Shown piece by piece: positions 2,672 to 34,313 of a stretch of 64,000 nt of DNA (positions are counted from its first letter, which is position 1; every line of letters begins with the position of its first letter). Below the pieces are notes generated by a model. It had not been told where the DNA came from. It was given only the letters and a program-made list of their open reading frames with translations, and made no database searches. The position numbers were made by a program, and so were the translations under genes. This DNA is from Patulibacter sp. (GTDB taxonomy: Bacteria; Actinomycetota; Thermoleophilia; Solirubrobacterales; Solirubrobacteraceae), in contig JASGGQ010000001.1 of the NCBI GenBank assembly GCA_047604965.1, forward strand, positions 88 through 64,087. Direction: 5' to 3'.

Positions 2672-5224
<2,553 letters not shown>

Positions 5225-5308
5225 GGAAGCTCCTCAAGGTCGATGGTCGGGGCGGAGGTGGCTGCGGTCAAGCGCACACCACCGCCAAGCAAAAATCTAT
5301 GCGCGAAC

Positions 5309-5328
5309 GACTTAGATTATTGCTAGTC
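5309..5328. promoter_or_regulatory. AT-rich promoter patch upstream of clpB with the imperfect inverted repeat GACTTAG-N7-CTAGTC; weak HspR-operator candidate
   Basis: It is one of the few AT-rich stretches in the window, about 85-105 nt upstream of the clpB ATG. On the gene strand a TTGACA-N17-AATAAT/TAATCT-like promoter overlaps it. It shares the 9-mer AATCTAAGT with the dnaK upstream region. It is not the canonical HAIR sequence. Confidence 0.25.
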
Positions 5329-5550
5329 CCGGCGGTGATGTCAAATCGATGACGGGTGCTTGGCGTGGCCGGTTTCGGTACTCGCGTCGGCCGCTCGCAG
5401 GGTCATGGTGTCCCCCGGTCGCCACACAACGGCGGCGGGCCACGATACGGTTCGCAGTACTCCGCCTTGCACCGCGCGCGTGATGCCCGAGCTTCGTGTG
5501 CGGTGGTGCCGTTGTCAGCCGTGTTTCGCAGCCAGCTCGCTTTCAGAACT

Positions 5551-6465
5551 TTGTTGCGCCGCGTGCGGCGCGCGCCAGATGGCGCGACGATCGTGTCGGT
5601 TTTGGCGCTCTTCTTCGCGCTCTCCGGCAGCGTGGTGGCGGCGACGAAGATTGCGCGCGCCAGCATCGGCAGCGCGGAGATCAAGAACGGTTCAATCAAA
5701 GGGGTCGACATCGGCGACGATGTGCTCAACGGCCGGCAGATCAACGAACAGGCACTCGGGGTCGTGTCGCGGGCTGCTGCGGCGGGCAGTGCGACCGTCG
5801 CGCAGGTCGCCGGAGAAGCACAGCACGCTGCGACCGCGACTCGCGCTGACACGGCCGATCTCGCGGCCAAGGCGAGCAGTGCCGACCGTGCCACCAGCGC
5901 GACGCGCGCCGACCGTGCGACGAATGCCGACCGTGCGACGAATGCCGACCGTGCGACGAATGCCGACCGCGCGACGAATGCCGACCGTGCGCGCGACGCG
6001 ATGACGGTCGGTGGGCACGGCGCCGAGGAGTTTGTCGCTGCCAGCGATGTCTTTCCTGTGGCCGTCAAACTCGGCGAAGGCGAGCAGCGCACGCTGGTCG
6101 AACGTGACGGCTTGCGTGTCGTCGCCGCGTGCCAACGCGCCGTCGCCGGCGCCGACGTGTTCTCGGTGAGCTTTGCCTCCGAGGATGACGGAGCATCGTT
6201 TTCGGGGCCGGCCAACGAGCTTGATGGTTCGACCGGCAACGGGCTGGGGCCGGACACGCCGGACTGGCGTCGTGTCGCACTGCTCGTCAGCGCCAGCACC
6301 GGCACGAGCGTCGTTCGCACTTCATCGACGGCGATCTCCGGCACGAGTGCGAACGGCACCTCGATCTTTGTCGGCGCCGGCGGCTCCGCGCGCATCGCCT
6401 TCAACATGTACGGGGCGGTGTGCGCATTTTCGGCGCCGGTGATGGTGTCGCGGCTCGCGCCGTAG
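5551..6465 (+). CDS. Membrane-anchored hypothetical protein with an (A-D-R-A-T-N)n repeat
   Basis: The track ORF is 5356..6465, and high GC3 begins near 5550. Likely TTG/GTG starts lie at 5551, 5554 or 5563, just before the TM segment IVSVLALFFALSGSVVAA and the IKNGSIKGVDIGDD motif. The C-terminal half has no recognisable domain. Confidence 0.6.
   Translation: MLRRVRRAPDGATIVSVLALFFALSGSVVAATKIARASIGSAEIKNGSIKGVDIGDDVLNGRQINEQALGVVSRAAAAGSATVAQVAGEAQHAATATRADTADLAAKASSADRATSATRADRATNADRATNADRATNADRATNADRARDAMTVGGHGAEEFVAASDVFPVAVKLGEGEQRTLVERDGLRVVAACQRAVAGADVFSVSFASEDDGASFSGPANELDGSTGNGLGPDTPDWRRVALLVSASTGTSVVRTSSTAISGTSANGTSIFVGAGGSARIAFNMYGAVCAFSAPVMVSRLAP
5908..5979 (+). repeat. 18-bp in-frame tandem repeat GCCGACCGTGCGACGAAT x4, with degenerate copies on both sides (about 5881..5997)
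   Basis: Read directly. Four consecutive units carry one substitution in unit 4 and encode ADRATN x4 inside the 5551..6465 CDS. Confidence 0.9.
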
Positions 6466-6545
6466 GCGATCACCTCGATCAGTGATTCTGCGGTCGCGTC
6501 TGTCCACGGCACCCCGCCGTGGAATCAATCATTTAGGCTGGCGCG

Positions 6546-7022
6546 GTGCCGCGCAGGTCAAGTGCAGGGCTGCTCCCCTTCCGCTCCGGCCCCGATGGGC
6601 TCGAAGTGCTGATCGCGCATATGGGCGGCCCGTTCTGGGCGCGCAAGGATGCCGGCGCGTGGTCGGTCATCAAGGGTGAACATGAACTGGGCGACGATCC
6701 GGTGGCAGCGGCGCGCCGCGAATGGGCGGAGGAGACCGGCACGCCCGCACCCGATGGCGCGCTGATCGCGCTCGGCGAGGTGCGGCAGAAGAGCGGCAAG
6801 CGCGTCAGCGCATGGGCCGTCGAGGCGCCGCTGCTCGACCCGGCCGGCTTCGTCAGCAACACCTTCGAGCTGGAGTGGCCGCCGCGTTCCGGCCGGCTCC
6901 AGCAGTTCCCGGAGATCGACCGCGCCGAATGGATGACGCTCGATGTCGCCGCCCACCGGCTGGTCGATGCGCAGCGTCCGCTGCTCGCTGCCTTGACCGA
7001 CGCGCTCGGGATCCACTCATGA
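6546..7022 (+). CDS. NUDIX hydrolase
   Basis: 158 aa with a clear Nudix box, GEHELGDDPVAAARREWAEETG (GX5EX7REUXEEXGU). Confidence 0.9.
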   Translation: MPRRSSAGLLPFRSGPDGLEVLIAHMGGPFWARKDAGAWSVIKGEHELGDDPVAAARREWAEETGTPAPDGALIALGEVRQKSGKRVSAWAVEAPLLDPAGFVSNTFELEWPPRSGRLQQFPEIDRAEWMTLDVAAHRLVDAQRPLLAALTDALGIHS

Positions 7023-7092
7023 GTTCGCTGCGCTGAGCGGCGGTGTGTTGGTTGCGCCGGCCGTGCCAGCCCGGCGCGATTGAGGCGTCGGC

Positions 7093-7797
7093 TTAGTTGT
7101 AGGCTGAGCGGGCGCGGGCGAGCTGCACGTCGAGGCGTTGGCGGGCGGTGAACTCCAGCGGCAGTTTGGTGCCCATTGCGCGTGCCGCGACGTGTGCTGG
7201 GTGAAGGCCGAGCTCGGCGGCGCGGAGGGCGACCAGTTCCAGCAGGATCGCGGCGACTTCGTGTGCGCAAACCCAGCGCAGATCGAGCCGGTCGCCAAGT
7301 TCGCGGGCCGGCATCAGCACGCCGGCGCCGTACTCGATTGCGCCGGCCTCCGGGTGGTCGCGGACGGCGAGCAGCATCGTTTCGGTGGAGGGGCTGACGA
7401 TCACGTCGACTGGGCGCCCGGCTTCCTGTGCGGCGGCGGCGACGAGCGCGGTCGCGACTGCCGGGTGGCCGGCGCCGCTCCGGCACACGTAGTCGGGGCG
7501 CAGATCGCGCAGGCGCGTGTCGAGTGGTCGGGCGGCGGCGGTGTCGAGGCCCAGGCAAACGTGCCGGTGGAGTGCCGCGAGCTGCGCCGAGGGTGAGCGT
7601 TCGCCGAGGGCGGCGAGTGCCGCGGCGCGTCTGGCGATCCATTCCCGGAGGCGATCACTTCGAATCGCACGTTCGTCGTCCGGTGTTGCCATCGAGCGGC
7701 CGATCTCCTCTGAGAACGCGAGCAGCAGCGGCGCAAGGTCTGGCTCTCCGGAGGTGACGAGATCAGTGAATGAGCGGGACACCATGGCGCGCACCAT
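7093..7797 (-). CDS. Hypothetical protein (possible transglutaminase-like/UPF0162-type fold); may be the last gene of the dnaK operon
   Basis: 234-aa ORF with high GC3 and an ATG at 7797. It lies 107 nt downstream of hspR on the same strand. The only resemblance is weak (RSGAGHPAVATALVAAAAQEAGRPVDVIVSP). Confidence 0.5.
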   Translation of the reverse strand: MVRAMVSRSFTDLVTSGEPDLAPLLLAFSEEIGRSMATPDDERAIRSDRLREWIARRAAALAALGERSPSAQLAALHRHVCLGLDTAAARPLDTRLRDLRPDYVCRSGAGHPAVATALVAAAAQEAGRPVDVIVSPSTETMLLAVRDHPEAGAIEYGAGVLMPARELGDRLDLRWVCAHEVAAILLELVALRAAELGLHPAHVAARAMGTKLPLEFTARQRLDVQLARARSAYN

Positions 7798-7904
7798 ATC
7801 CGACTTTCACAGTCGGGTATGGGGGTCTGCGTGGCAGCACCGCGATTTGCGGGCCGAGGTGCGGTGCTCGCGTCGCGAGCGTCAAGCGACCGCGACCAGC
7901 CTGC

Positions 7905-8352
7905 TCAGCGTGGGGCCGGGGGCTGCCAGCGGACGATCGCGGTGCGCTGGGCGTCGCGCAGACGCTGCACCTCAGCCTCCAGCTCCAGGCGGCGCCGCTC
8001 GACGGCGGTGTATCGGCGCTCGAGCTGCTCGAGCCGCTCCTCCAGCGCCAGCACCCGCTCGACGCCCGCGAGATTGAGACCGAGCGACGCCGTCATCTCC
8101 TGGATGCGCCGCAGCCGCTCCACATCGTCCTGCGAATACAGGCGCGTGCCACGCGGCGAGCGCTGCGGTGCGATCAACCCGCGCTGCTCGTACATCCGCA
8201 ACGTCTGCGGATGCATGTCCGCCAACTCTGCGGCGACCGAGATCATGAATACGCCCCGGCTGCTGCTGACCTCGATCCGCGTCGTGCGCAGGTCGTCGCG
8301 CCGCCGCGCCTCGCTGCCGGACGGCCCGCCGGTAAAGCCGGTCGCATCCTGC

Positions 8353-8360
<8 letters not shown>
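7905..8360 (-). CDS. hspR: MerR-family heat-shock repressor HspR
   Basis: MerR HTH (ISVAAELADMHPQTLRMYEQRGLIAPQRSPRGTRLYSQDDVERLRRIQ) followed by a coiled-coil tail. The ATG at 8360 overlaps the dnaJ stop (ATGGCTGA). This is the classic actinobacterial dnaK-grpE-dnaJ-hspR order. Confidence 0.9.
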
Positions 8361-9468
<1,108 letters not shown>

Positions 9469-9525
9469 CGTTCGTTCTGCTCGTCTCTTCGTCGTATCCG
9501 GTGAGGGTGTGCTGTGGCAGTGGGG

Positions 9526-10152
9526 TTATTCGGTGACGACCACCCGCGCCGGGCGGATGATCTCCTCGCCGGCCGCGTAGCCGGCCTGGTAGACGGGACT
9601 GCAAATCCCGCTTGCTTCGCCGTCGCCGGCCGGCCGCTTGGCCATCGCTTCGTGGCGCACCGGATCAAACGGTTCGCCGGCCGGATCAAAGCGCTCCACG
9701 CCGCCGCGCCCCAGCGAGGCGATCAACTCGTCGTGCAACTGGCGCAGCGCATCGAGCAGCCGGCCGGCATGCTCGCCCGAGTCGGCGGCGGCGGCCTCCA
9801 GCGCCGCCGTCTCATGCTCCAGCGCCCGCTCGGCGTTGTCGATCGCCGGCAGTAGCTCGCGCGCCAGCTCCACGCTGCCCCGCACGCGCGCCGCCGCGAG
9901 GTCGCGCTGCGCGCGCTTGCGATAGTTGTCGAAGTCGGCGCGGGTGCGCTGCGCGAGCGCGAGCAGCTCGCCGGCCTGCGCGGCGAGCCGGCGGATCTCC
10001 TCGTCGCTCTTGCCCTCCAGCGGATCGTTGGCCGGTTCGTCGACTGCCACCGCACCGTGCGGCGCGGTGGCGGCGTCGGATGCCGTATCGGTGGCGCTGG
10101 AGTGGGCCGGCGCGTCGGCGCAGGCTCTAGTCGTCTCAGGCTCAGTGCTCAT
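9526..10152 (-). CDS. grpE: Nucleotide exchange factor GrpE
   Basis: 208 aa with a GrpE-type coiled-coil and C-terminal beta domain (FDPAGEPFDPVRHEAM). It sits between dnaK and dnaJ. Confidence 0.93.
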   Translation of the reverse strand: MSTEPETTRACADAPAHSSATDTASDAATAPHGAVAVDEPANDPLEGKSDEEIRRLAAQAGELLALAQRTRADFDNYRKRAQRDLAAARVRGSVELARELLPAIDNAERALEHETAALEAAAADSGEHAGRLLDALRQLHDELIASLGRGGVERFDPAGEPFDPVRHEAMAKRPAGDGEASGICSPVYQAGYAAGEEIIRPARVVVTE

Positions 10153-20896: not shown

Positions 20897-21789
20897 GCGT
20901 GCTCGTCGCGATTGAGCCGGGCCGCGTTGGCGATGGAGGCCGCGCGGCGCTGGAGCTGGGCGCGACGCTCGGCACCGCACTGGATCGCAGCGTGCAGGTT
21001 GCCGTGGTGGTGGTCGTCGCGCCGGGTGTGCCGTCGCCGCTGCGCGTCGGGATGAGCGACGAGGCGTTCGCGCAGCAGCTGGCCGCCGACGCGATCGATG
21101 AGGCCCGCACGCGCCTGGGCGACCGCTTCGGCGGCACGGTCGCGATTCGCGAACGCTCGGTGCGTGCCGGGCTGCTTGCCGCGATCGAGCAGGCGCGCCC
21201 CGGGCATCTCGTGCTCGGCTCGGCGCATGGCGCCGGCCCCGGACGGATCGAACTCGGCGAGATCGCTCGCGGTTTGCTCAATAGCAGTCCGGTGCCGGTC
21301 GTGATCGCGCCGCGCGGCTACTCCCGCTATGACGCATCCCACCCGCTGCGCCGCGTCACCGTCGCCTTCGGGCCGGATTCGGCCAGCGCCTTTGCGCTGC
21401 GGTACGCCGCCGTGCTTGCCGAGCGTGCCGACACGCAGCTGCGCACGGCGACCTTTTGGGTGCGCCAGGCGACGACGCCGCCGGCAATCGGTGGTGGCCG
21501 GGGCGACAACGAGGTTGCGATGCAGTGGAAGGAGCAGATGCGGCGGCGCGTCGACCAGGCGATCCGGGGTCTCGATCAGTTGGAGCTACCGAGGCGCTTT
21601 ATCGCGACCGACATCGCCGACGGCGATGATTGGGCGGAGGCCGTTCACACGCTCGACTGGGACGGCGGCGATCTGCTGATCGTCGGCTCCAGCCCGCCCG
21701 GCGGGTTGCGGCGCGTCTTTCTCGGCTCACGCTCGGCGGAGATTTTGCGTCGAGCGCCGGTGCCGGTCGCCGTGCTGCCCGGCGTGTGA
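20893..21789 (+). CDS. Tandem universal stress protein (two UspA domains)
   Basis: 298 aa with two USP halves, each ending in a G-x2-G...G(S/T)-type ATP-binding motif (LVLGSAHGAGPGRIELGEIARGLLNSSPVPVVI; LLIVGSSPPGGLRRVFLGSRSAEILRRAPVPVAV). The GTG start overlaps the GT-PHP stop (GTGA). Confidence 0.88.
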   Translation: MSVLVAIEPGRVGDGGRAALELGATLGTALDRSVQVAVVVVVAPGVPSPLRVGMSDEAFAQQLAADAIDEARTRLGDRFGGTVAIRERSVRAGLLAAIEQARPGHLVLGSAHGAGPGRIELGEIARGLLNSSPVPVVIAPRGYSRYDASHPLRRVTVAFGPDSASAFALRYAAVLAERADTQLRTATFWVRQATTPPAIGGGRGDNEVAMQWKEQMRRRVDQAIRGLDQLELPRRFIATDIADGDDWAEAVHTLDWDGGDLLIVGSSPPGGLRRVFLGSRSAEILRRAPVPVAVLPGV

Positions 21790-21999
21790 TCCCATACGGC
21801 GAGACGCGCTTCGTGGCGTTTCCGTGTGGTGGTTCCCCCCGAATCGTGGAGGTCTTCTTGATGCGGCTTCGACTGGCGCGGGTCGACGTGCGGTGTTCGC
21901 CGGGGTCGACCGTGGGCACCGGTGGTGATTCACGTATGAGTTGCCCGCAAGCGCGCCCCGAAAGTCGACGCGGCTGGTCGACCGGGGTACAGTGCGCCG

Positions 22000-23016
22000 G
22001 TGAGCCCCTCCCTGGCTGCCATGTTCGCTCGTGCATCCGCGCTCGCGCTGCCGTGCTCGGTGGCGCTCGCGCTGCCCGCGACTCAGGCCATCGCCGCAGA
22101 TGAGATCGGCAAGAAGTCGGGCGTCAGCTACGCGGGCATGCATGCCGTGGACACGCAGGCGCGGCTGGTGCTCTTCGCCGACACCTTTGACAACGGGGCA
22201 AAGTGCTCGGCTCACGCGATGGTGGAGTACAAGCCCGTGCTCCACGCGCGGCGCTACGAGCACAACACCACGCTGTTCCCCTACGAGATGTCCACGATTT
22301 CCTACGCTTGGACGAGGGACGGCAGCGATGGCGACGTGGGCGATACGTCGTCGTCGACGTACTACGACGCCAACACCGGCAAGACGTACGGGCCGACGGA
22401 GGAGGGCTATCGGTTGGAGACCGGCCTCGGGCAGTGGGGCGGCGTCGTCTCGCCGCCGTGCCCGACCGACCCGACGATCGGCGGCACGTACACGCTCCAA
22501 CGCATGGTCGGCTGGGTCTCTGACTCCTACGCCGCGCCGACGCCCACGCCGGAACCCACACCGACGCCGACGCCCACGCTGGAATCCACGCCGACACCGA
22601 CCACGCTGGAATCCACGCCGACGCCGACCGCCGATCCCACGCCGACGCCGACCACGCAAGCGCTTGAGTTGTTGCCGCCGCCGCTGGGTGCGCTCGCTCG
22701 GTTGCAGTCGTCGGCCCCCACCGTCAAGGGTGGGGCGACCAGCATCACCGTCACGCGCGATGGCAAGCAGTATCGGGCCGACACCACCTCGGCTTTCCAG
22801 TTCGGTGACGTGATCGAGATTGACGAGGACACGTTGCTGACGATCGAATACCTGACGGGTGGGCGAGTCGGCTTGGCGCACGGCGCCAAGGTGCGCATTA
22901 CCGGCGACCGGGAGATGGAGTTGCTCGGCGGGACGACGGAGGCTGCTCCGTCGTACGACTATCTGCACCCACTCGAGATTCAGACCAATGGTGGTGTCGT
23001 GGGGATCCGCGGATGA
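22000..23016 (+). CDS. Secreted hypothetical protein with a P/T-rich linker and a FecR-like C-terminal domain
   Basis: Signal-like N-terminus (ALALPCSVALALPATQAIA), linker PTPTPEPTPTPTPTLESTPTPTTLESTPTPTADPTPTPTT, and a C-terminal beta-rich segment resembling FecR (ITVTRDGKQYRADTTSAFQFGDVIEIDEDTLLTIEYLTGGRVGLAHGAKVRI). The FecR call is tentative. Confidence 0.6.
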   Translation: MSPSLAAMFARASALALPCSVALALPATQAIAADEIGKKSGVSYAGMHAVDTQARLVLFADTFDNGAKCSAHAMVEYKPVLHARRYEHNTTLFPYEMSTISYAWTRDGSDGDVGDTSSSTYYDANTGKTYGPTEEGYRLETGLGQWGGVVSPPCPTDPTIGGTYTLQRMVGWVSDSYAAPTPTPEPTPTPTPTLESTPTPTTLESTPTPTADPTPTPTTQALELLPPPLGALARLQSSAPTVKGGATSITVTRDGKQYRADTTSAFQFGDVIEIDEDTLLTIEYLTGGRVGLAHGAKVRITGDREMELLGGTTEAAPSYDYLHPLEIQTNGGVVGIRG

Positions 23017-23444
23017 GCCACCGACCGGTCACGATCGCGCTGCTGGCCGTCACGGTCGCGGTCTCCGGTGGCGCGGCCGCCGCCGCGCTGGCGGGCCCAC
23101 CGGCCGCGCCGACCCTGGTGCCGATGGCCTCGTCCGCCAAGGCTAACCCGGTCGTGGGCACGGTCACCAAGCTCGGCGGTTCCAAAAAGCTGAAGGTGCA
23201 GGCCGAGGGCAAGGGCAAGGCGAAGACGCTCACGGCCGGCGGCGAGCTGCGGCTCGGTGATCGCGTCACGCTCGGCAAAGGCGTGACCGCGACGCTCAAG
23301 CTGACGCGCCCGAAGTCGGTCACCGAAGGCACCGTGCTCGTGTACGTCACCTCGGCCAAGGGCACCTCGCATCGCTCCAAGCTCACCAAGAAGGGCCGCA
23401 CCACCACGGCGGTCATCACCCCTGTCAAGTCGAGCAAGAAGTAG
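23013..23444 (+). CDS. Small secreted/anchored lysine-rich hypothetical protein (FecR-like beta segment)
   Basis: 143 aa. ATGA overlap with the upstream gene. TM/signal segment VTIALLAVTVAVSGGAAAAALA. Segment VVGTVTKLGG...LTAGGELRLGDRVTLGKGVTATLKL. GC3 is high. Confidence 0.6.
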   Translation: MSHRPVTIALLAVTVAVSGGAAAAALAGPPAAPTLVPMASSAKANPVVGTVTKLGGSKKLKVQAEGKGKAKTLTAGGELRLGDRVTLGKGVTATLKLTRPKSVTEGTVLVYVTSAKGTSHRSKLTKKGRTTTAVITPVKSSKK

Positions 23445-23626
23445 GTCCTGGACCTTGCGCGGCGCGAGCATCGGGCCGTGGTGACGAACAACCTCGTGGA
23501 CTCCCGGCCGTTGCATCACGAGGCGATCGTCCTGGGCGGCCCCGGGCACCTCGGGATCATCTTCATGCCTGGCGCGTATCGGCGGGCGAGATCCGTGCAT
23601 CGGCTGGGCGCAGCGACGCGCTACGG

Positions 23627-25228
23627 TCACGGCAGGCCGACGACGGCGACGGGGAGCCAGGCGTCGGACGCCGAGCCGTTGCCGAGCTGCCCGTAGCCGT
23701 TGTTGCCCCAGCACTTGGCGCCGCCGGTCGTGAGCATGACGCAGGTGTGGTACCAGCCGGCGGTGATCGCGGTGGCGTCGGTGAGGTTCTCGGTCGGGAT
23801 GGGCACCGGCTTGACGTGCGCGTCGTAGTCGGAGGTGCCGATGCCGAGCTGCCCGTAACCGTTGAGTCCCCAGCAGCTGACGGTCTGGTTGCTGCGCAGC
23901 GCACACGTGTGCCCGTAGCTGGTGCTGATCGCGATGGCGTCGGTGAGGTCCTTGACGGCGACCGGCTTGTCGCGGTCGGTGGTGCTGTCGTCGCCGAGCT
24001 GTCCGAGCTCGTTGTTCCCCCAGCAGCTGACGGTCTGGTTGCTGCGCAGCGCGCACGTGTAGTCCAAGCCGGCGGTGATCGCGGTGGCGTCGGTGAGGTC
24101 CTTGACGGCGACCGGCGCGTTGCGGCTGGTGGTGCTGTCGTCGCCGAGCTCGCCGTCGCTGTTCATGCCCCAGCAGCTGACCTCGCCTGTGCTGCGCAGC
24201 GCACACGTGTGCTCGTAGCCGGCGGTGATCGCGGTGGCATCGGTGAGGCCGGTGACGGGGAGTGGCTTGGGGTGGGGGTCGTGGTCGTCGTGGCTGTTGC
24301 CGAGCTGCCCGCTGTTGTTGTACCCCCAGCAGCTGACGGTCTGGTTGCTGTGCAGCGCACACGTGTGCTCGTAGCCGCCGCCTCTGGCGCCGGCGGCGAT
24401 CGCGGTGGCATCGGTGATGTCGCTGACGGCGACCGGCGTGGCGCGGGGGACGGTGCTGTCGTCGCCGAGCTGCCCGTAGTCGTTGTTGCCCCAGCAGCTG
24501 ACGGCGCCGGTGCTGTGGACCGCGCACGTGTGCCGCCCGCCGGTGGCGATCGCGGTGGCATCGGTGAGGCCGGTGACGGGGGCCGGCGTGGGGTGCGGGT
24601 CATCGTCGGCGGTGCCGATGCCAAGCTGCCCGTCGGTGTTGGCGCCCCAGCAGTTCGCGGTGCCGGTGCCCTGCAACGCGCAGGTCGTCCGGCCGCCGGC
24701 GACGAGTTGCGTGCCCGACGACGACGGGGTGGGAGGCGCAGGGGCGGGGGCCGGAGTGGCGGTCGGCGCCGGATCTGGTGTGGGGGTCGGCGTGCCGGGA
24801 TCTGGTGTGGGGGTCGGCGTGCCGGGGGTGAGCTTGATGAGCTTGGACTTGGTGGCGAGCGTCTTCTTGCCGCTGACGAGCGTCAGGCGCAGGCGGTAGC
24901 TGCCGACCGCCGGGGCCGTCCAGGCGAGCGTGAACGCCTTCTGCTTGCCGCTCGGCTTGCCGGTGGCCGCGAGCTTCCACTTCGTGCCGGCGCGGCGCTG
25001 CAGCCGCACCTTTGCACCCGATGGCGCGTTGCTCGCGCGCCCGGTGATCGTCACCTTGAGGCCCGCAGGTGCCGTCCAGGCGACTTTTGCCAGAGCCGGC
25101 TTGGGCTTCTTTGAGCTTGAGTTCGCGGCGCCCGCCGATCCGGCGGGGCCCGCCAGCGTCGCGACGAGCACCCCGCCGAGGACGGCCGCCCGCCGTCCGA
25201 ACTTGCCGAGGCCCGCTGCGTGTCCCAT
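23627..25228 (-). CDS. Secreted RCC1-repeat (seven-bladed beta-propeller) protein with an N-terminal Ig-like domain
   Basis: Seven CWG-x-N-x2-GQLG blades: ANCWGANTDGQLG, VSCWGNNDYGQLG, VSCWGYNNSGQLG, VSCWGMNSDGELG, VSCWGNNELGQLG, VSCWGLNGYGQLG, AKCWGNNGYGQLG. I re-set the start to MGHAAGLGKFGRRAAVLGGVLVATLAGPAGSAGA (ATG 25228). Confidence 0.9.
   Translation of the reverse strand: MGHAAGLGKFGRRAAVLGGVLVATLAGPAGSAGAANSSSKKPKPALAKVAWTAPAGLKVTITGRASNAPSGAKVRLQRRAGTKWKLAATGKPSGKQKAFTLAWTAPAVGSYRLRLTLVSGKKTLATKSKLIKLTPGTPTPTPDPGTPTPTPDPAPTATPAPAPAPPTPSSSGTQLVAGGRTTCALQGTGTANCWGANTDGQLGIGTADDDPHPTPAPVTGLTDATAIATGGRHTCAVHSTGAVSCWGNNDYGQLGDDSTVPRATPVAVSDITDATAIAAGARGGGYEHTCALHSNQTVSCWGYNNSGQLGNSHDDHDPHPKPLPVTGLTDATAITAGYEHTCALRSTGEVSCWGMNSDGELGDDSTTSRNAPVAVKDLTDATAITAGLDYTCALRSNQTVSCWGNNELGQLGDDSTTDRDKPVAVKDLTDAIAISTSYGHTCALRSNQTVSCWGLNGYGQLGIGTSDYDAHVKPVPIPTENLTDATAITAGWYHTCVMLTTGGAKCWGNNGYGQLGNGSASDAWLPVAVVGLP
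24771..24824 (-). repeat. Perfect 27-bp tandem duplication inside the RCC1 gene's P/T linker
   Basis: Read directly: GGATCTGGTGTGGGGGTCGGCGTGCCG x2, encoding the repeated nonapeptide PGTPTPTPD in-frame. Confidence 0.85.
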
Positions 25229-25362
25229 CTCGGCGACCGTACCGCCCGTCACACCACCCGCGCAAGCACCAGCGTCCACCCGCCGGCGACGTGCCTTCGA
25301 CCGAGTCCACCGATCCGCGGCACGGGGCGGGCGATGCGCCGGAAGTTCGAGCAGATGGTTGA

Positions 25363-25860
25363 TTGCATGGGGTGGTGTTGTGGCTGTGCGTGATTCGTGG
25401 ATGCCCTGGATGCTGGGGTGAGTCATCACCATGCTGGTGGCCTGGGTTGACTCGCACCAGGACCCACTTCGGCGAGTTTGATCTCCCGTCGCAGCGTGTC
25501 CGCCTGCCGCAGGTCGGGAACATCCCGCTGACCGGCCTAGTCAAGCTCGTCGTTTCCGGCGCTCCGCAACAGGAGCTCGTCAACGGCGAACTGGTCGTGA
25601 CGACGAAGGTCAAGGTGCGCATGGAGAAGGTGTTCCAGTTCGGCGCGATCGAAGTCGCCGGCCCGGCAACCTGCCAAACCTCGCGGCTCAGCACGATCGT
25701 GCTGCGCGGCAGCTTTCACCCCGCGACTGGCGGCACCCTCAACGGCACCTACGACATCAGCAACATGACTGGCTGCGGCAGCCTCAACGGCCTCATCAAC
25801 CCGCTCACCGAGAGCACCAACAACCCGATCAGCATCACACTCACCCCCAACGCCGTCTAG
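25363..25860 (+). CDS. Hypothetical protein, possibly a 5'-truncated remnant
   Basis: GC3 is high only from about 25450 onward (...THFGEFDLPSQRVRLPQVGNIPLTGLVKLVVSG...NGTYDISNMTGCGSLNGLINPLTESTNNPISITLTPNAV). No signal peptide or convincing start or ribosome-binding site exists in any frame upstream, and the first ~30 codons of the track ORF have poor GC3. Confidence 0.45.
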   Translation: MHGVVLWLCVIRGCPGCWGESSPCWWPGLTRTRTHFGEFDLPSQRVRLPQVGNIPLTGLVKLVVSGAPQQELVNGELVVTTKVKVRMEKVFQFGAIEVAGPATCQTSRLSTIVLRGSFHPATGGTLNGTYDISNMTGCGSLNGLINPLTESTNNPISITLTPNAV

Positions 25861-28125
<2,265 letters not shown>

Positions 28126-28208
28126 CAGCTCGCGAGAGGTTTCAAGGTGCGCACGCCGGCCGGTCACGCGCGCACCGTGTGCGCGCGACCGCTACCATGA
28201 GCCGCTGC

Positions 28209-28281
28209 GGCGAGATAGCTCAGTTGGTAGAGCACACGACTGAAAATCGTGGTGTCCCGGGTTCGAATCCCGGTCTCGCCA
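28209..28281 (+). tRNA. tRNA-Phe (anticodon GAA)
   Basis: I folded the cloverleaf by hand. Acceptor GGCGAGA/TCTCGCC, D-arm GCTC-AGTTGGTA-GAGC, anticodon arm CACGA-CTGAAAA-TCGTG (GAA at 34-36), variable loop GTGTC, T-arm CCGGG-TTCGAAT-CCCGG, discriminator A. No CCA is encoded. Confidence 0.95.
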
Positions 28282-28286
28282 TTCGG

Positions 28287-28301
28287 GTTCGAGACTTGTC
28301 C
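28287..28301. repeat. Left direct repeat GTTCGAGACTTGTCC, immediately preceded by GCCATTCGGG (28278..28287), which spans the tRNA 3' end
   Basis: Read directly. It matches 30466..30480 at 14 of 15 positions, and 15 of 16 when the preceding G is counted. It also resembles the tRNA T-arm start (GGTTCGAAT). Confidence 0.8.
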
Positions 28302-28309
28302 GTCCGCGA

Positions 28310-28798
28310 CTACGGCGCAAGGACGAGCCGCGCCTGCTGCTGACGGAGCAGCGAGAACGTGTTGATCGTCTTCACGCCGTGCGGGATGCAGGCGTCCGGG
28401 ATCTTGATCTTCTTCGTCGATGCCGAGGGCTGCTCAAGCGTGACGACGTCAAAGCCGTGGGCGTGCGCATGGGCGACGAGGTAGTAGTCCGCTCCGTCGA
28501 GAAACGGGGTGACCGCGACCGGTTCGTACTGAGCACCGCGCGCCCACGACGCGATCGTGGCGAGGCTCGGGAGCACCGCGGCGTCCGGTGCCAGGAAGAA
28601 GTCGGCGCCCCTTGCCTTCGCCCAGTCCGCGAGTTCGTGCGCGCCTCCGAGCAACTCGTCACGAACCCGCTGGATCGAGAACACGTTGCCGCTGGCGTGC
28701 TCGCGGTCGATCCAGTCCCAGAAGCCGGGGGCGAAGTCGAACGGGTAGTACGAGTTCTTGGCGGTGATGAAGACGTTGGTGTCGAGCAGGTACGCCAT
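28310..28798 (-). CDS. PIN-like nuclease-fold protein (DUF4411 family)
   Basis: 162 aa. The N-terminus MAYLLDTNVFITAKNSYYPFDFAPGFWDWI is the characteristic DUF4411/PIN opening (acidic D in LLDTN). Further acidic residues follow (DELL, FLDGADYYLVAHA). Its ATG at 28798 directly abuts the TAG of the upstream ImmA/IrrE gene. Confidence 0.8.
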   Translation of the reverse strand: MAYLLDTNVFITAKNSYYPFDFAPGFWDWIDREHASGNVFSIQRVRDELLGGAHELADWAKARGADFFLAPDAAVLPSLATIASWARGAQYEPVAVTPFLDGADYYLVAHAHAHGFDVVTLEQPSASTKKIKIPDACIPHGVKTINTFSLLRQQQARLVLAP

Positions 28799-29947
28799 CT
28801 ACGCGACACCCACGCGAGAGGCCAGCTCGTTGAAGGTCGAGACCTTCTTGAAGCCCAGCATCTGGAAGGCGTCGCGATGGAGCGTCTGGCCTGCCAGAGT
28901 GCTGCGGATCAGCGCGCGCGTGAAGCGCTTGCTCGTGCGGACCGGCTGGGTGTTGTAGAAGCTGCCGCCGGTCGCCCTGCGCTGTTCCATGAGCGCCAGG
29001 ACGCGCGCCAGCTCTGTCTCGTACTCCTGTCGGAATTGCGTGTCGGAGAGCAGCCCGGCGTCGTAGATCCGGCGCAGCGCGACGAGCGTGCTGACCTTGA
29101 ATCTGCGCGCGATCTGTTCGAGAGCGGCCGGCACATCGGTGAGGTCCAGCGCTGCGGGCAGTGCGCTCGTCGGCAACAGGAACTCGGCCGCGACCTGGTT
29201 GCACCACCGCTCGGTCGCGTTGGCCGACGTGCGCCGCATGTCGGCGTCGGAGACGGCCGACTGGCCGAGCCAGATGTGGACCAGTTCGTGGGCGAGTGTG
29301 AAGATCTGCGCTGCTCGTGTGTCGGCTCCGTTGACGAAGACGACCGGGGCAAGATCGTCGGCGAGCGCGAACCCGCGGAACTCCTTGGGGTCGAGCTTGC
29401 GGTGCGTGTTGCTGCCGACAACGCCACTGACCATCACCAAGACCCCACTGTCCTCCGCCTCAGCAACGAGACGGCTGAACGCGTCGGTCCACGTGGAGCC
29501 GCGCTCGTCGGGCGCGAACGACAGCGTCTCGCGCATCGCGTCGGCAGCTTCGACGACGTCGGAGCCAACGCTAAGCGTCCCGACGACCGCGACCGGGTCT
29601 TCGCGGTTCAGTCGCGCGTAGTCGCGGTACCACTCCTGGCGCTGCTGGCACTGGTAGATCGTGTCCAGCAGGTTCGGGCTCGCGTAGCCGACCGTGACAT
29701 CACCGATCGTGCGGAAGTCGGGCACCCGCAGCGCCTCGTCTGGCGGCGCGCCGAGGAAGAAGTAGCCGACCGGCGTGTACGTCGCCGACGCGAACTTCTC
29801 AAGCTGCTTGAGCGTCGGCTGCTTGGTTCCCGCCTCCCACTCTTCGAGCGCCGCAAACCGCCTGAAGAGATCCTCGGGCGCGATCCGCGACCGCTCGCGT
29901 GCCCACGCGAGCATCGCCGGCTGGACGGATACCCGGACGGTCGTCAC
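28799..29947 (-). CDS. XRE-type HTH fused to an ImmA/IrrE-family (COG2856) zinc metallopeptidase
   Basis: 382 aa. N-terminal HTH region (LAWARERSRIAPEDLFRRFAALEEWEAGTKQPTLKQLEKFASATYTPVGYFFL) and HEXXH zinc site (FTLAHELVHIWLG) with downstream E (AAEFLLP). GTG start at 29947. Confidence 0.85.
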   Translation of the reverse strand: MTTVRVSVQPAMLAWARERSRIAPEDLFRRFAALEEWEAGTKQPTLKQLEKFASATYTPVGYFFLGAPPDEALRVPDFRTIGDVTVGYASPNLLDTIYQCQQRQEWYRDYARLNREDPVAVVGTLSVGSDVVEAADAMRETLSFAPDERGSTWTDAFSRLVAEAEDSGVLVMVSGVVGSNTHRKLDPKEFRGFALADDLAPVVFVNGADTRAAQIFTLAHELVHIWLGQSAVSDADMRRTSANATERWCNQVAAEFLLPTSALPAALDLTDVPAALEQIARRFKVSTLVALRRIYDAGLLSDTQFRQEYETELARVLALMEQRRATGGSFYNTQPVRTSKRFTRALIRSTLAGQTLHRDAFQMLGFKKVSTFNELASRVGVA

Positions 29948-30036
29948 GGCGTGGTGAGCGGCCCGGTCTGGCGGCGCTCAAGCTCGTTGACTCTCATCGC
30001 CAGCATCGTTCGATCATATGGGCCGGGCCTCCTGTA

Positions 30037-30050
30037 GTTCGGAACCGAAC
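30037..30050. promoter_or_regulatory. Inverted repeat GTTCGG-AA-CCGAAC upstream of the ImmA/IrrE-PIN operon; candidate operator
   Basis: Read directly. It lies about 90-100 nt upstream of the GTG at 29947, next to a TATGAT -10-like hexamer on the gene strand. Confidence 0.3.
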
Positions 30051-30168
30051 CTGTCCAGGCACAATCCACGGGACCATGTAGGTCTTCTGACTCGACGTCA
30101 TCGCCCAGAAGGTTACTGCGGCGTCGTGACCGACGCCGACGATCGCTCCGCGGCGTAGCGGACGAACG

Positions 30169-30510
30169 TCACGCTGCTTCGTAGCGCCCGTAGCCGACCT
30201 TGCGCACCGCGACATCGTCGCGCCACAGGGCGCTGTCGGCGCTGGAGCCGCTGACCGGCTCGCCAAGGCGTCGCTCGGCCTCCCGCTGCAGGTCGATGGC
30301 CCGCATGGGCATCTCGGCCTCGGCGAGGATTCGCTCAAGCAGTCGCATGACCTGCCCCGGCCGGCGAGCCTGGCGCGGGCGAGGGCTCGGACGGTCAGCG
30401 GCCTCGCCGTCCCGCACACCCTCCAGAACCGAGGTCAGGTTCGCCCACGAGCTCTTGACAGATCGGTTCGAGAGTTGTCCAGCTAGAGCCATTCGGGACA
30501 GGCCTTGCAA
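30169..30510 (-). CDS. Small hypothetical protein with a winged-helix-like C-terminus (weak HARE-HTH resemblance); start uncertain
   Basis: 113-aa track ORF with a TTG start. GC3 is good in the C-terminal ~60 codons (MRLLERILAEAEMPMRAIDLQREAERRLGEPVSGSSADSALWRDDVAVRKVGYGRYEAA) and poor in the first ~20 codons, which overlap the right-hand repeats. Alternative ATG starts lie at 30492 and 30348. Confidence 0.4.
   Translation of the reverse strand: MQGLSRMALAGQLSNRSVKSSWANLTSVLEGVRDGEAADRPSPRPRQARRPGQVMRLLERILAEAEMPMRAIDLQREAERRLGEPVSGSSADSALWRDDVAVRKVGYGRYEAA
30466..30497. repeat. Right repeats: GTTCGAGAGTTGTCC (30466..30480), 7 nt, then GCCATTCGGG (30488..30497)
   Basis: Read directly. The 10-mer is identical to 28278..28287 (tRNA 3' end plus 6 nt) and the 15-mer differs at one base from 28287..28301. 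Together they resemble a degenerate copy of the tRNA T-arm-to-3'-end segment: GGTTCGA...GCCATTCGGG. Confidence 0.8.
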
Positions 30511-30606
30511 CGCGGGGCCTTTTTCGTTGCTGCGAGACTGCCAAGTTCAGCGTCTCTGCGCGCCGCCAGCGGAGTTCGTGGCGTCAACGAGGCGGATTCG
30601 GGGTCG

Positions 30607-31215
30607 CTACTTCGCTTGGAGGATCGTCTCGAGGTGATCCAGTGGGCTGGTGGTGCGGTCCATGCGAACGTCCTCCAGCCACACGCGAAACGCGGCGAGT
30701 GTTCGGGCGACCAACAGGCGCAGTTGCCAGTCGAGGAGCGGCGGACTGGCGTCGCGCTGGCGGAGGAGGTCGGTGAGCATCCGCTCACGATCGGTGAGGT
30801 GGATCAGCGGCGAGCGGCTGGCCGCTCCCGCGTCGGTTGAGGCGACGAAGAACAGCGACAGCCGCTCCCAGTGCTCCAGAACGTACGTAGCGAGTTGCCG
30901 AAAGGCATCCCGTAGGACGCGGGCATTGTCGTCTTGCGCTGGCGCGGCTGCAATGGCCGCTTCGAGCTGCTGCGTCATCTCGATCACCGGTTCGAGCAGG
31001 AGGTCGGCCTTGGCCGGGAAGTAGCGGAAGAAGCTGCGCGGTGCCACGCCGGCGGCGTCGCAGATCTCGTCGACCGAGACGTTTGCGAAGCCGCGCTCGG
31101 CGAACAGCGCGATCCCAATCTCCGCGACTTTGGCCTTGGCCTCGGCACGTTTGCGCTCGCGTCGCGTCGGTGGCTTCGCGGATGGGCTGGGGGCGCTGTT
31201 CGAGGAAGCTCGCAT
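30607..31215 (-). CDS. TetR-family transcriptional regulator
   Basis: 202 aa after I re-set the start to the ATG at 31215. HTH: GFANVSVDEICDAAGVAPRSFFRYFPAK. It is divergent from the MFS transporter gene. Confidence 0.9.
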   Translation of the reverse strand: MRASSNSAPSPSAKPPTRRERKRAEAKAKVAEIGIALFAERGFANVSVDEICDAAGVAPRSFFRYFPAKADLLLEPVIEMTQQLEAAIAAAPAQDDNARVLRDAFRQLATYVLEHWERLSLFFVASTDAGAASRSPLIHLTDRERMLTDLLRQRDASPPLLDWQLRLLVARTLAAFRVWLEDVRMDRTTSPLDHLETILQAK

Positions 31216-32789: not shown

Positions 32790-34145
32790 CTAGTACTGCA
32801 CGACCGCCGCGCTGCGTGGGCCGAGCGTCAGCGACTTGACCTTCACGGTCGGCTGCGGCCACGTCGTCGATGCGAGGTTGACGCCGGCCTTCGGGAGCTT
32901 GACGCGCTTGCTGACATCGTTCGGGTTGAGTACGACGATGCCGTGCTTGAGCTTGCGCGTCAGCAGGCCGCGGCGATCGACGCGCTTGCCGACCGGCTTG
33001 CCGAGATTCGCGCTGTAGCCCGCCCAGCCGCGCCCCGGATATTGGCAGGTATCGCCGACGCTGTCGCCCGATTTGAAGGTCAATACCGCCGTCGCGAAGT
33101 TGAACGCTGCGGCGCGCGTATGCGCCTGCCACACCAGATCGCCAAGTGCCCAGGTGCCGGACGCCTGGTCGGCGTCGCCGCAGGCCGGTAGCGCCGCGAG
33201 CAGCGGGGCGCCGGCCACCGGCGTCTGGCTTTTCGTCAGATCGGCGCTGGAGGTCATCTCCCACTGCACCTTGGCCTTGCGTTGATGCAGCGCGTCGGCG
33301 AAGGTCAGCAGTCGCCGGTACGACCACGCCACCGTCGCGGCGAGCGGGTAATGCAGCCCGGGGTCGATCGCGCCGCCCTCGATGATGACCTGATCGGCGA
33401 GCCGGGCCGCGCGCACCGCCGGATCGCTTGCCTTGAGCTTTGGCTTGGCGGCGTACCCGTACTTCGTGTCGGTCCAGTGCATGTTGATCGTGAAGGTCGT
33501 GCCCTTCGGCTTGAGCTTCTTGAGCGACTTCAGCAGCGTGAGCACGCCGTTCGCCCACCGCTTCGCCGAGATCTGCATCGCCGGGGAAAAGCCGACCTTC
33601 GGATTGGTGAGCGCGTTGTCGATCCACAGGCTCGAATACCCGCACGCGTACAGGTCCAATGCGCCGCGCTCGTTGGCGTCCGGGTTGCAACTCACCTTGC
33701 CGTCGGCGCCGTACAGCCACCACCTGCGGGCCGCCGGGATCCGCAGGTCGATCGTTTGCCAATCGGTATCGACGGCGACCGGCTGTCCGTTCTGCGTCAT
33801 CCGCCACGCCTGGGTTTCGTTCATGCCGGCGGTGTTCCAGCGGTTGACGCCGGTGCCGTTGCGGTACACCGCCGTGCGGGCTTTGATCGCCCAACCGGTG
33901 ATGTACTGGCTGACTCGCGGATCGGAGTCGTGCAGCACGAGCGGGCTGGCGTTTGCGGCCAGCCACTTCTGCTCGGCGGTCATTTCCGCTGCCGACGTCT
34001 GCGGGCCTGCGGTCAAGAGGTAGCGGTCGAGCGACGGATCGACGCGGCGCGAAACGTTCATCGTTGCGGCGTCGGCGATCGACGGGACGCCGAACGCGAG
34101 CAGCAGCGCGGCCACCACGGCACCACGCAGGAAGGAGAGGGCCAT
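32790..34145 (-). CDS. Secreted glycoside-hydrolase-like (TIM-barrel/GHL-type) protein, paralog B
   Basis: I re-set the start to MALSFLRGAVVAALLLAFGVPSIADA (ATG 34145). It is colinear with the 1..1425 protein over its whole length. The family name is tentative. Confidence 0.8.
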   Translation of the reverse strand: MALSFLRGAVVAALLLAFGVPSIADAATMNVSRRVDPSLDRYLLTAGPQTSAAEMTAEQKWLAANASPLVLHDSDPRVSQYITGWAIKARTAVYRNGTGVNRWNTAGMNETQAWRMTQNGQPVAVDTDWQTIDLRIPAARRWWLYGADGKVSCNPDANERGALDLYACGYSSLWIDNALTNPKVGFSPAMQISAKRWANGVLTLLKSLKKLKPKGTTFTINMHWTDTKYGYAAKPKLKASDPAVRAARLADQVIIEGGAIDPGLHYPLAATVAWSYRRLLTFADALHQRKAKVQWEMTSSADLTKSQTPVAGAPLLAALPACGDADQASGTWALGDLVWQAHTRAAAFNFATAVLTFKSGDSVGDTCQYPGRGWAGYSANLGKPVGKRVDRRGLLTRKLKHGIVVLNPNDVSKRVKLPKAGVNLASTTWPQPTVKVKSLTLGPRSAAVVQY

Positions 34146-34313
34146 CGACGGAGCGTACCGATCGGGGAGGGCGAACCGTTCCAGTAGGCCCCAAAGCTGG
34201 CCGAAATACTGGCCTGCGGTGTCACGGCATGCGGCCACCACCGCCTGGTGTCGCATCGCCGCGTGACACGGCGTTCAGTGCGGGCGCCGCCGCGTATCGG
34301 CGATGATCGCGCG

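Follow-up and report, generated by a model that had tools for sequence, protein, structure and literature searches.

The subject of this analysis is a pair of adjoining genes in a 64,000-nucleotide stretch of DNA from Patulibacter sp. (contig JASGGQ010000001.1, positions 88 to 64,087 of the forward strand), referred to below as the window. Both genes are intact and lie on the minus strand: first an antitoxin gene with a GTG start, coding for 382 amino acids (aa), at 28799-29947, and then a toxin gene of 162 aa at 28310-28798. The junction between them reads GCG TAG ATG GCG, in which the stop codon TAG is followed by the start codon ATG with zero spacer. The DNA around the locus has a GC content of about 67-70%, in a high-GC window, and the GC content at the third codon position is 0.88-0.90 in the two open reading frames (ORFs), as in the real or expressed genes of this genome. 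A tRNA-Phe(GAA) gene on the plus strand at 28209..28281 (ARAGORN; Rfam tRNA, 76 bits) converges on the toxin gene, and an Rfam scan of 28100-30700 found nothing besides the tRNA. As judged from sequence comparison, the two genes at 28310-29947 on the minus strand form a type II toxin-antitoxin module of the VapBC52 type, that is, the type of the Mycobacterium tuberculosis toxin VapC52 and antitoxin VapB52 (Rv2514c/Rv2515c), whose structure and mechanism were described in 2026 (PDB 9VZY/9VZZ; PMC13273310).

The toxin begins with MAYLLDTNVFITAKNSYYPFDFAPGFWDW. An annotated protein of a Patulibacter sp. metagenome-assembled genome (Solirubrobacterales, Actinomycetota) matches it at 100% identity, and a public gene index lacks the exact sequence. 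The initial annotation of this DNA described the toxin as a 162-aa PIN-like protein with the start that is the hallmark of DUF4411, placed with zero spacing behind the larger gene, and both statements were confirmed. Pfam DUF4411 matches the toxin end to end (residues 3-157, E=1.3e-48), as a single-domain protein, and Pfam PIN matches weakly, just below threshold (E=8.9e-5). Acidic PIN residues had been named as a check on the nuclease idea, and four of them, D6, E48, D104 and E122, are invariant in an alignment of 30 toxin homologues. The YLLDT of the toxin aligns with YSFDT of VapC52, and its D6 corresponds to the D6 that was mutated in VapC52. When the single sequence was searched against the PDB sequences it found 9vzy_D (a "DUF4411 family protein", which is VapC52) at E=7e-4, and a profile of the 30 homologues found the same chain at E=1e-11; the two toxins are 24% identical. 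The AlphaFold model of the toxin (predicted local distance difference test, pLDDT, 76) has its best fold matches among the FitB and VapC PIN toxins, with a template modelling score (TM-score) of 0.5-0.68 by Foldseek against the PDB. The fold library used for this search ends in April 2026, which predates the release of 9VZY, and 9VZY and 9VZZ are outside the comparison. By analogy with VapC52, the toxin is probably a DUF4411 PIN-fold, metal-dependent RNase, and probably a tRNase that would cut anticodon or variable loops.

The antitoxin is predicted to begin with an XRE-like domain, which is followed by an IrrE/M78 zinc peptidase and, at the C-terminus, a conserved tail; it is both VapB52-like and RmrA-like. 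It had been annotated as an XRE-type helix-turn-helix (HTH) joined to an HEXXH peptidase. The peptidase half stood: Peptidase_M78 (IrrE N-terminal-like) matches residues 165-294 at E=4.7e-18, and the motif is HELVH at residues 220-224. The HTH half holds at the family level only. A Pfam HTH search of the window antitoxin itself gave no match, and the claim is valid for the family because HTH_3 matches 15 of 50 close homologues, HTH_31 matches 9 of the 50, and the N-terminus aligns with the XRE-like N-terminal domain of VapB52. In PADLOC, 16 models of RmrA, the antitoxin of RosmerTA, match the protein (the best, PDLC03949, over residues 8-309 at E=9.4e-18), and capP matches at E=2.5e-12. Against the PDB sequences, the single sequence found 9vzy_A (VapB52) over residues 8-346 at E=6e-23. 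The family profile found the same chain over positions 6-345 at E=3.6e-32, and its next matches were IrrE structures at around 1e-8 (3dte, 3.6e-8). The identity between the window antitoxin and VapB52 is 27%.

For a closer comparison 73 antitoxin homologues were extracted from related loci and aligned with VapB52. H220, E221, H224 and E246 are invariant in all 73 and align with the zinc ligands of VapB52 (HExxH plus Glu). The linker P-x-P-D77-F78-R79-T is near-invariant, with D77 and R79 each kept in 72 of the 73 and F78 in 65, and its D77-F78-R79 aligns with the D-F-R of VapB52, which is the "FR" self-cleavage motif. Residues from about 346 to 382 are strongly conserved within the subfamily. 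A GAF domain was found neither in the window antitoxin (Pfam, E<=0.1) nor in 50 homologues (E<=0.05). Separately from the cysteine switch of VapB52 that is discussed below, a second cysteine was noticed at residue 249 in E-R-W-C-N, three residues past the zinc Glu; it is present in 71/73 relatives and in VapB52 (EARCN).

The mycobacterial pair shows how such proteins can work together. VapC52 is a DUF4411-type PIN tRNase, and it cleaves host tRNAs as well as the tRNAs of phage D29 (PMC13273310). The 46-kDa VapB52 has three domains: the N-terminal one is XRE-like, the middle one combines an IrrE-type peptidase with an HTH, and the C-terminal one is helical (PMC13273310). The complex contains one antitoxin per toxin dimer; the N-terminal domain is indispensable for binding, and the C-terminal domain blocks the toxin's active site (PMC13273310). 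Single-stranded DNA (ssDNA) activates the VapB52 peptidase, whose own N-terminal domain is then cut off near the conserved "FR", and in the inactive state the zinc is capped by C229 (PMC13273310).

The window pair shares with VapBC52 a DUF4411 PIN toxin with the same acidic residues; an antitoxin with an XRE-like N-terminal domain, an IrrE-type HExxH with its Glu ligand, and a D-F-R linker; and the antitoxin-first order of abutting genes. Both come from Actinomycetota. The window antitoxin differs in that it lacks the 23-residue disordered N-terminal extension, has Ser as its switch residue and ends in a C-terminal tail that fell outside the sequence alignment, and the setting in a tRNA-Phe islet is also different. 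By homology, the window pair is a distant member of this known and named toxin-antitoxin system. The pairing had at first been thought possibly uncharacterised and novel. The architecture was predicted in 2009, in a study that named Rv2515c (PMC2701414), and a 2017 prediction placed DUF4411.1 with HTH-DUF955 (PMC5499597). The toxicity of the Rv2514c/Rv2515c pair and its rescue were shown in 2019 (PMC6504116), and the structural and mechanistic work followed in 2026. NetFlax, too, associated the ImmA/Rosmer antitoxin node with PIN-like toxins (PMC10440598). The suggestion of novelty falls because the system is already named and characterised.

Several other known systems resemble the pair in part. 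RosmerTA (RmrT/RmrA) likewise pairs an antitoxin made of an HTH and an ImmA-type peptidase with a swappable toxin, in what NetFlax calls the "ImmA/Rosmer zone" (PMC10440598). Its toxins are different: the RmrT models of PADLOC v2.0.0 match neither the window toxin nor any of 30 DUF4411 toxin homologues, and characterised RmrT, for example that of Gordonia phage Kita, depolarises membranes and is not a nuclease. Gene order is variable in RosmerTA but fixed in the window-type cassette. CapP/CapH, IrrE/DdrO and ImmA/ImmR have the M78/IrrE zinc peptidase domain in common with the window antitoxin. Sensing of ssDNA or DNA damage is known for CapP and IrrE, and CapH is likewise cleaved at an F-R site (2026 CapP preprint). 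These three are two-protein transcriptional switches that control other genes, whereas in the window the substrate HTH is fused to the peptidase and the proposed output would be the release of a bound toxin. No separate HTH repressor gene that might serve as peptidase substrate was found adjacent to the window pair; the sole small ORF nearby has no homologue and is absent from 80 related loci. Unlike IrrE and CapP, the window antitoxin has no detected C-terminal GAF domain. Canonical VapBC modules resemble the pair in the toxin, whose PIN fold matches VapC/FitB, and differ in the antitoxin, which is a 382-aa peptidase here and not a small (8-13 kDa) VapB of the ribbon-helix-helix (RHH), AbrB or Phd kind.

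One genome per species was scanned for relatives of the module (185,579 species), which gave at least 584 loci with toxin relatives, and 80 loci from many phyla were fetched. They are numbered with an L here where they need to be told apart. In 80/80 of these loci, an antitoxin homologue lies immediately upstream of the toxin homologue on the same strand. The gene junction was measured in 76 loci: there is a 1-nucleotide (nt) overlap in 62, the genes abut in 6, and the overlap is 4 nt in 5 (73/76 together). The nearest upstream ORF encodes HsdS in 12 of 72 loci, HsdM in 3 and an integrase in 4, and the nearest downstream ORF encodes HsdR in 9 of 76. Three loci from other phyla (L026, L059 and L060, at about 3500-9600 in each) have the order hsdS-antitoxin-toxin-hsdR on one strand with tight spacing, and in L040 (again about 3500-9600) the upstream ORF has HsdM domains and HsdR follows the cassette. 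That PIN toxins are linked to type I restriction-modification (R-M) operons had been remarked on in 2017 (PMC5499597). Other cassette neighbours include genes for GmrSD, Pycsar-TIR, AbiEii-like, Abi_C, Fic, BrnT and TrwC proteins and for transposases. The order in L043 is tRNA-Met, integrase, cassette; L007 has an integrase and then the cassette, and an ISL3 transposase is encoded upstream in L046. In about 6 of the 80 loci there is a tRNA gene within 1 kb of the cassette. Homologues of the toxin-antitoxin pair are also found on 48 plasmid records, of which 26 are conjugative, and there are weak matches in 2 phage records.

A comparable arrangement is that of E. coli prr, where the anticodon nuclease gene prrC occupies the hsdS/hsdR slot of the EcoprrI type I R-M locus. 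Relatives of the present cassette also stand between hsdS and hsdR, and the target, tRNA, is likely common to the two nucleases. PrrC is an ABC-ATPase-type nuclease unrelated to the PIN toxin, and it is silenced by the R-M enzyme, without a dedicated antitoxin.

The position of the module next to tRNA-Phe was examined in three relatives (L081, L082 and L085), which have a FadH orthologue 79-82% identical to that of the window and tRNA-Phe downstream of FadH. DNA homology between the window and all three stops exactly at the 3' end of tRNA-Phe (28282). L085 (2468-2658) is an empty site, with tRNA-Phe, a hairpin and then a homologue of the window gene at 32790-34256. After tRNA-Phe, L082 (10577-12566) has three unknown genes (118, 367 and 78 aa), and L081 (9738-15760) has an AAA protein, a Y4kK/S8 peptidase and GmrSD. 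Since the cargo 3' of tRNA-Phe differs from relative to relative, the slot is a hotspot for variable genes in Solirubrobacteraceae.

Within the window a direct repeat, GCCATTCGGG, is found at both ends of the segment that contains the module. The left copy (28278..28287, plus strand) is made of the last 4 nt of the tRNA and 6 nt more, and the right copy (30488..30497, plus strand) is directly upstream of an orphan terminator. The repeat occurs just twice in the 64-kb window, where 0.2 would be expected, and the start-to-start spacing of the copies is 2210 bp. A 16-nt repeat marks both ends of the insert just on the inner side: its left copy is GGTTCGAGACTTGTCC (28286..28301, plus strand), and its right copy GGTTCGAGAGTTGTCC (30465..30480, plus strand) is 15/16 identical; at two or fewer mismatches the window contains these two copies only. 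The orphan terminator is a terminator-like hairpin with a T-run at 30500..30525 on the plus strand, and no plus-strand gene precedes it. A GC-rich hairpin begins about 10 nt past the CCA end of the tRNA in L085 and L082, and no hairpin was found directly after tRNA-Phe in the window. The hairpin at 30500-30525 probably served as the terminator of tRNA-Phe before the insertion separated the two. No integrase was found between the repeats, nor did the 540 nt upstream of the antitoxin contain a remnant of one. The 10-bp repeat involving the tRNA 3' end, together with the orphan terminator, thus indicates an integrase-less insertion of 2210 bp between the tRNA and its terminator, and the simplest reading is that the inserted segment carries both genes of the module together with 540 nt of upstream DNA. 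The idea of a tRNA-associated islet, present in the initial annotation, is supported by the homology break, the empty site and the repeat around the 2.2-kb insert. Repeats of tRNA ends that flank the cassette elsewhere are short and ambiguous (L046, 13 nt; L043, 9 nt; L023, 9 nt), so mobility at the level of the cassette is not established beyond the window.

Three features of the wider surroundings were noted along the way. The region 21785-26083, between Usp and FadH, is a 4.3-kb segment that encodes an RCC1-repeat protein (23627-25432, minus strand); in L081 the Usp and FadH genes stand side by side and the segment is missing, and by this comparison it is a second strain-specific segment. 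The window gene at 32790-34256 (minus strand) encodes 488 aa with a predicted signal-like N-terminus and no Pfam match, and it has conserved counterparts in L082 and L085. Immediately upstream of the FadH orthologue of a more distant relative there is a classical RHH-PIN (VapBC-like) pair (L083:6221-6897), so that another kind of toxin-antitoxin system adjoins this conserved gene.

Upstream of the related operons, the only conserved elements are a -10-like box and the start codon that follows it. The box of the window is the hexamer TATGAT at 30013..30018 (minus strand), which aligns with TATCAT/TATGAT at -71 to -86 in L001, L004, L012, L028, L011 and L079. A generic sigma-70 scan did not find a full promoter. 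The box is followed by a candidate short ORF of 20 codons, MLAMRVNELERRQTGPLTTP (29944..30006, minus strand), whose TGA overlaps the GTG start of the antitoxin as GTGA. The same pattern of a TANNNT box, an A/GTG 5-8 nt further on and a short ORF with a 4-nt overlap occurs in 12/71 related loci, mostly from Actinomycetota. The short ORFs in these loci have 11-40 codons; in the actinobacterial relatives they have 20-28 codons, and their TGA lies in ATGA or GTGA. The DNA motif TATcATC-N5-6-ATG is conserved (window; L001, L004, L009-L012, L028, L033 and L079), but the encoded peptide is not. These features suggest that a leaderless upstream ORF may be translationally coupled to the antitoxin, a pattern that is only a lead because part of it would arise anyway in GC-rich DNA.

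Four things are observed directly at this locus and in its relatives: homology to VapBC52, conservation of the catalytic and cleavage motifs, strict linkage of the two genes, and the mobile and defence context of the family. Altogether they make a mechanism of the VapBC52 type the probable one: the antitoxin would neutralise the toxin directly and, when a nucleic-acid or damage signal arrives, cleave itself at the DFR linker and release a PIN tRNase. Translation of the abutting genes would probably be coupled, with a promoter about 70 nt upstream. The XRE-like N-terminal domain and the conserved C-terminal tail of the antitoxin would hold and occlude the toxin dimer, and the central IrrE-family zinc peptidase would be the built-in sensor. 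The peptidase may be activated by ssDNA from DNA damage or phage replication, and it would then sever its own N-terminal domain at the P-x-P-D-F-R-T linker. The cleaved complex would fall apart, and the freed toxin would arrest translation, leading to growth arrest or abortive infection. It is from VapBC52 only that toxicity, neutralisation by binding, the ssDNA trigger, the tRNA targets and phage defence would carry over to this pair. The core of the initial annotation, a PIN-like nuclease toxin gated by a stress- or phage-responsive XRE-metallopeptidase, is supported by the homology to this characterised system. The gating preferred here differs from the one in that annotation: VapB52 binds the toxin directly and cleaves itself, with no cleavage of a separate repressor as an expression switch.

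Several points weigh against carrying the VapBC52 mechanism over in full. The neighbours of the locus in the window are ordinary, housekeeping-type genes (FadH, TetR, an MFS transporter, Usp and a glycosyltransferase-PHP protein) and include no defence genes. No model in PADLOC v2.0.0 matches the window toxin or any of the 30 toxin homologues. With an identity to VapBC52 of only 24-27%, the pair may have another substrate, trigger or stoichiometry. In the antitoxin, the last ~37 residues fall outside the alignment with the C-terminal domain of VapB52, in both the single-sequence and the profile comparison. The protection of M. smegmatis from phage D29 was seen on overexpression of VapC52 and not with the native operon (PMC13273310). 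Finally, the cysteine-switch position, C229 in VapB52, is Ser233 in the window, and among the 73 homologues it is Ser in 69, Asp in 4 and Cys in none.

The last point has consequences of its own. Because the switch residue is Ser or Asp and never Cys, the published "cysteine switch" step cannot operate as described, and activation must differ in detail. The Asp neighbouring this position is kept. As far as the alignment goes, the subfamily is a cysteine-less variant of the VapBC52 design, and the switch Cys is the only tested VapBC52 feature that is absent. With Ser in place of the zinc-capping Cys, the peptidase may be held inactive differently or less tightly, as in IrrE. According to the 2026 CapP preprint, some CapP homologues do without a cysteine switch; IrrE is without it too, so its control is perhaps looser. 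In this respect IrrE and those CapP homologues are like the window subfamily.

A more far-reaching version of the VapBC52-type reading would make the Ser-for-Cys subfamily (the window and 73 relatives) mechanistically distinct, with a different or additional trigger compared with VapB52 and CapP. The window module would also be a self-contained, integrase-less 2.2-kb cassette that targets the junction of a tRNA 3' end and terminator, is mobilised in trans and is expressed from a leaderless upstream ORF coupled to the antitoxin. We regard this combination as improbable.

One alternative is that control acts at the level of expression, as in the predictions of 2009 and 2017 and in the initial annotation: the XRE domain would repress the operon, and the fused peptidase would destroy it on stress, with derepression, more than direct binding between the two proteins, as the main control of the toxin. 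The N-terminal domain is indeed XRE-like, and the related peptidases of ImmA/ImmR, IrrE/DdrO and CapP/CapH act in this way on separate repressors, with CapH cut at F-R. Type II antitoxins also commonly autoregulate, and such autoregulation may coexist with direct neutralisation. A possible operator is present in the form of the palindrome GTTCGG-NN-CCGAAC (30037..30050), 18 nt upstream of the -10-like box and at about the place of a -35 element. The palindrome had been reported in the promoter region and does exist there, but it goes neither beyond chance nor with a conserved operator. At one mismatch or less the window contains 2 matches where 0.4 would be expected, a count that 7 of 100 shuffles attain. 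Upstream of related operons, palindromes with 6-nt arms occur at about chance frequency and with differing sequences, and the palindrome was rejected as a conserved operator for its chance-level frequency and for want of a conserved counterpart there. Moreover, since the genes abut or overlap in 73/76 junctions, derepression would raise toxin and antitoxin together, and the VapBC52 complex cannot form without the N-terminal domain, which binds the toxin (PMC13273310). Gating by expression is considered unlikely here.

The next alternative is a purely selfish addiction module, which would stabilise the islet or plasmids and have no role in phage defence or stress. In favour of this, the cassette lies in a 2.2-kb insertion, its relatives are found on plasmids and on integrase-bearing islets, and in the window no defence genes adjoin it. 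On the other hand, relatives are nested in type I R-M operons and lie near GmrSD, Abi and Pycsar-type genes, and VapC52 protects M. smegmatis from phage D29. A built-in ssDNA-responsive peptidase would be superfluous for simple addiction. We judge this explanation to be improbable, to about the same degree as the previous one.

A three-gene system is far less credible still. In this scheme a third ORF at 30169-30510 would be a winged-helix regulator, a substrate of the peptidase or a third partner. It had been listed as a small winged-helix-like member of the module, and the ORF does exist: it is on the minus strand inside the inserted segment, with 59 aa from an ATG (30169..30348) or up to 113 aa from a TTG at 30510, and it lies 221 nt upstream of the antitoxin gene on the same strand. 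It thus shares the 2.2-kb insert with the module, and the GC content by codon position in its last ~180 nt is coding-like (0.77/0.50/0.85), though only in that part. Its only domain signal, WH_Rok, is sub-threshold (21-22 bits against a cut-off of 27.6). No homologue was found among 5.8 billion proteins, and in 0/80 related loci was there a relative of it or similarity to any flanking ORF. AlphaFold, run on the single sequence, gave a model of low confidence (pLDDT 64) without a winged helix, and the ORF lies upstream of the likely promoter of the operon. The lack of homologues, its absence from all 80 loci and the uninformative structure model led to its rejection as a part of the module; from the GC content by codon position, a 59-aa orphan gene may be real.

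That the locus is a decaying, non-functional remnant of a larger island, as the lack of an integrase within the repeats might suggest, is the least believable of all, as neither ORF is truncated, all the invariant family residues that were checked are retained, and the third-position GC content of 0.88-0.90 is typical of expressed genes in this genome.

The value of this locus for discovery is low, given that the architecture had been predicted, validated and structurally explained before, and its value is comparative. Defence annotators should detect a locus of this kind, yet PADLOC v2.0.0 has no model for the toxin. The survey indicates that the VapBC52 design is no mycobacterial oddity but a very widespread two-gene cassette, with at least 584 loci in many phyla, and that the cassette is often nested in type I R-M operons or carried on integrase islets and conjugative plasmids. 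The sampled subfamily lacks the cysteine switch on which the current model of activation relies, and it would therefore be a natural test of whether that switch is necessary.

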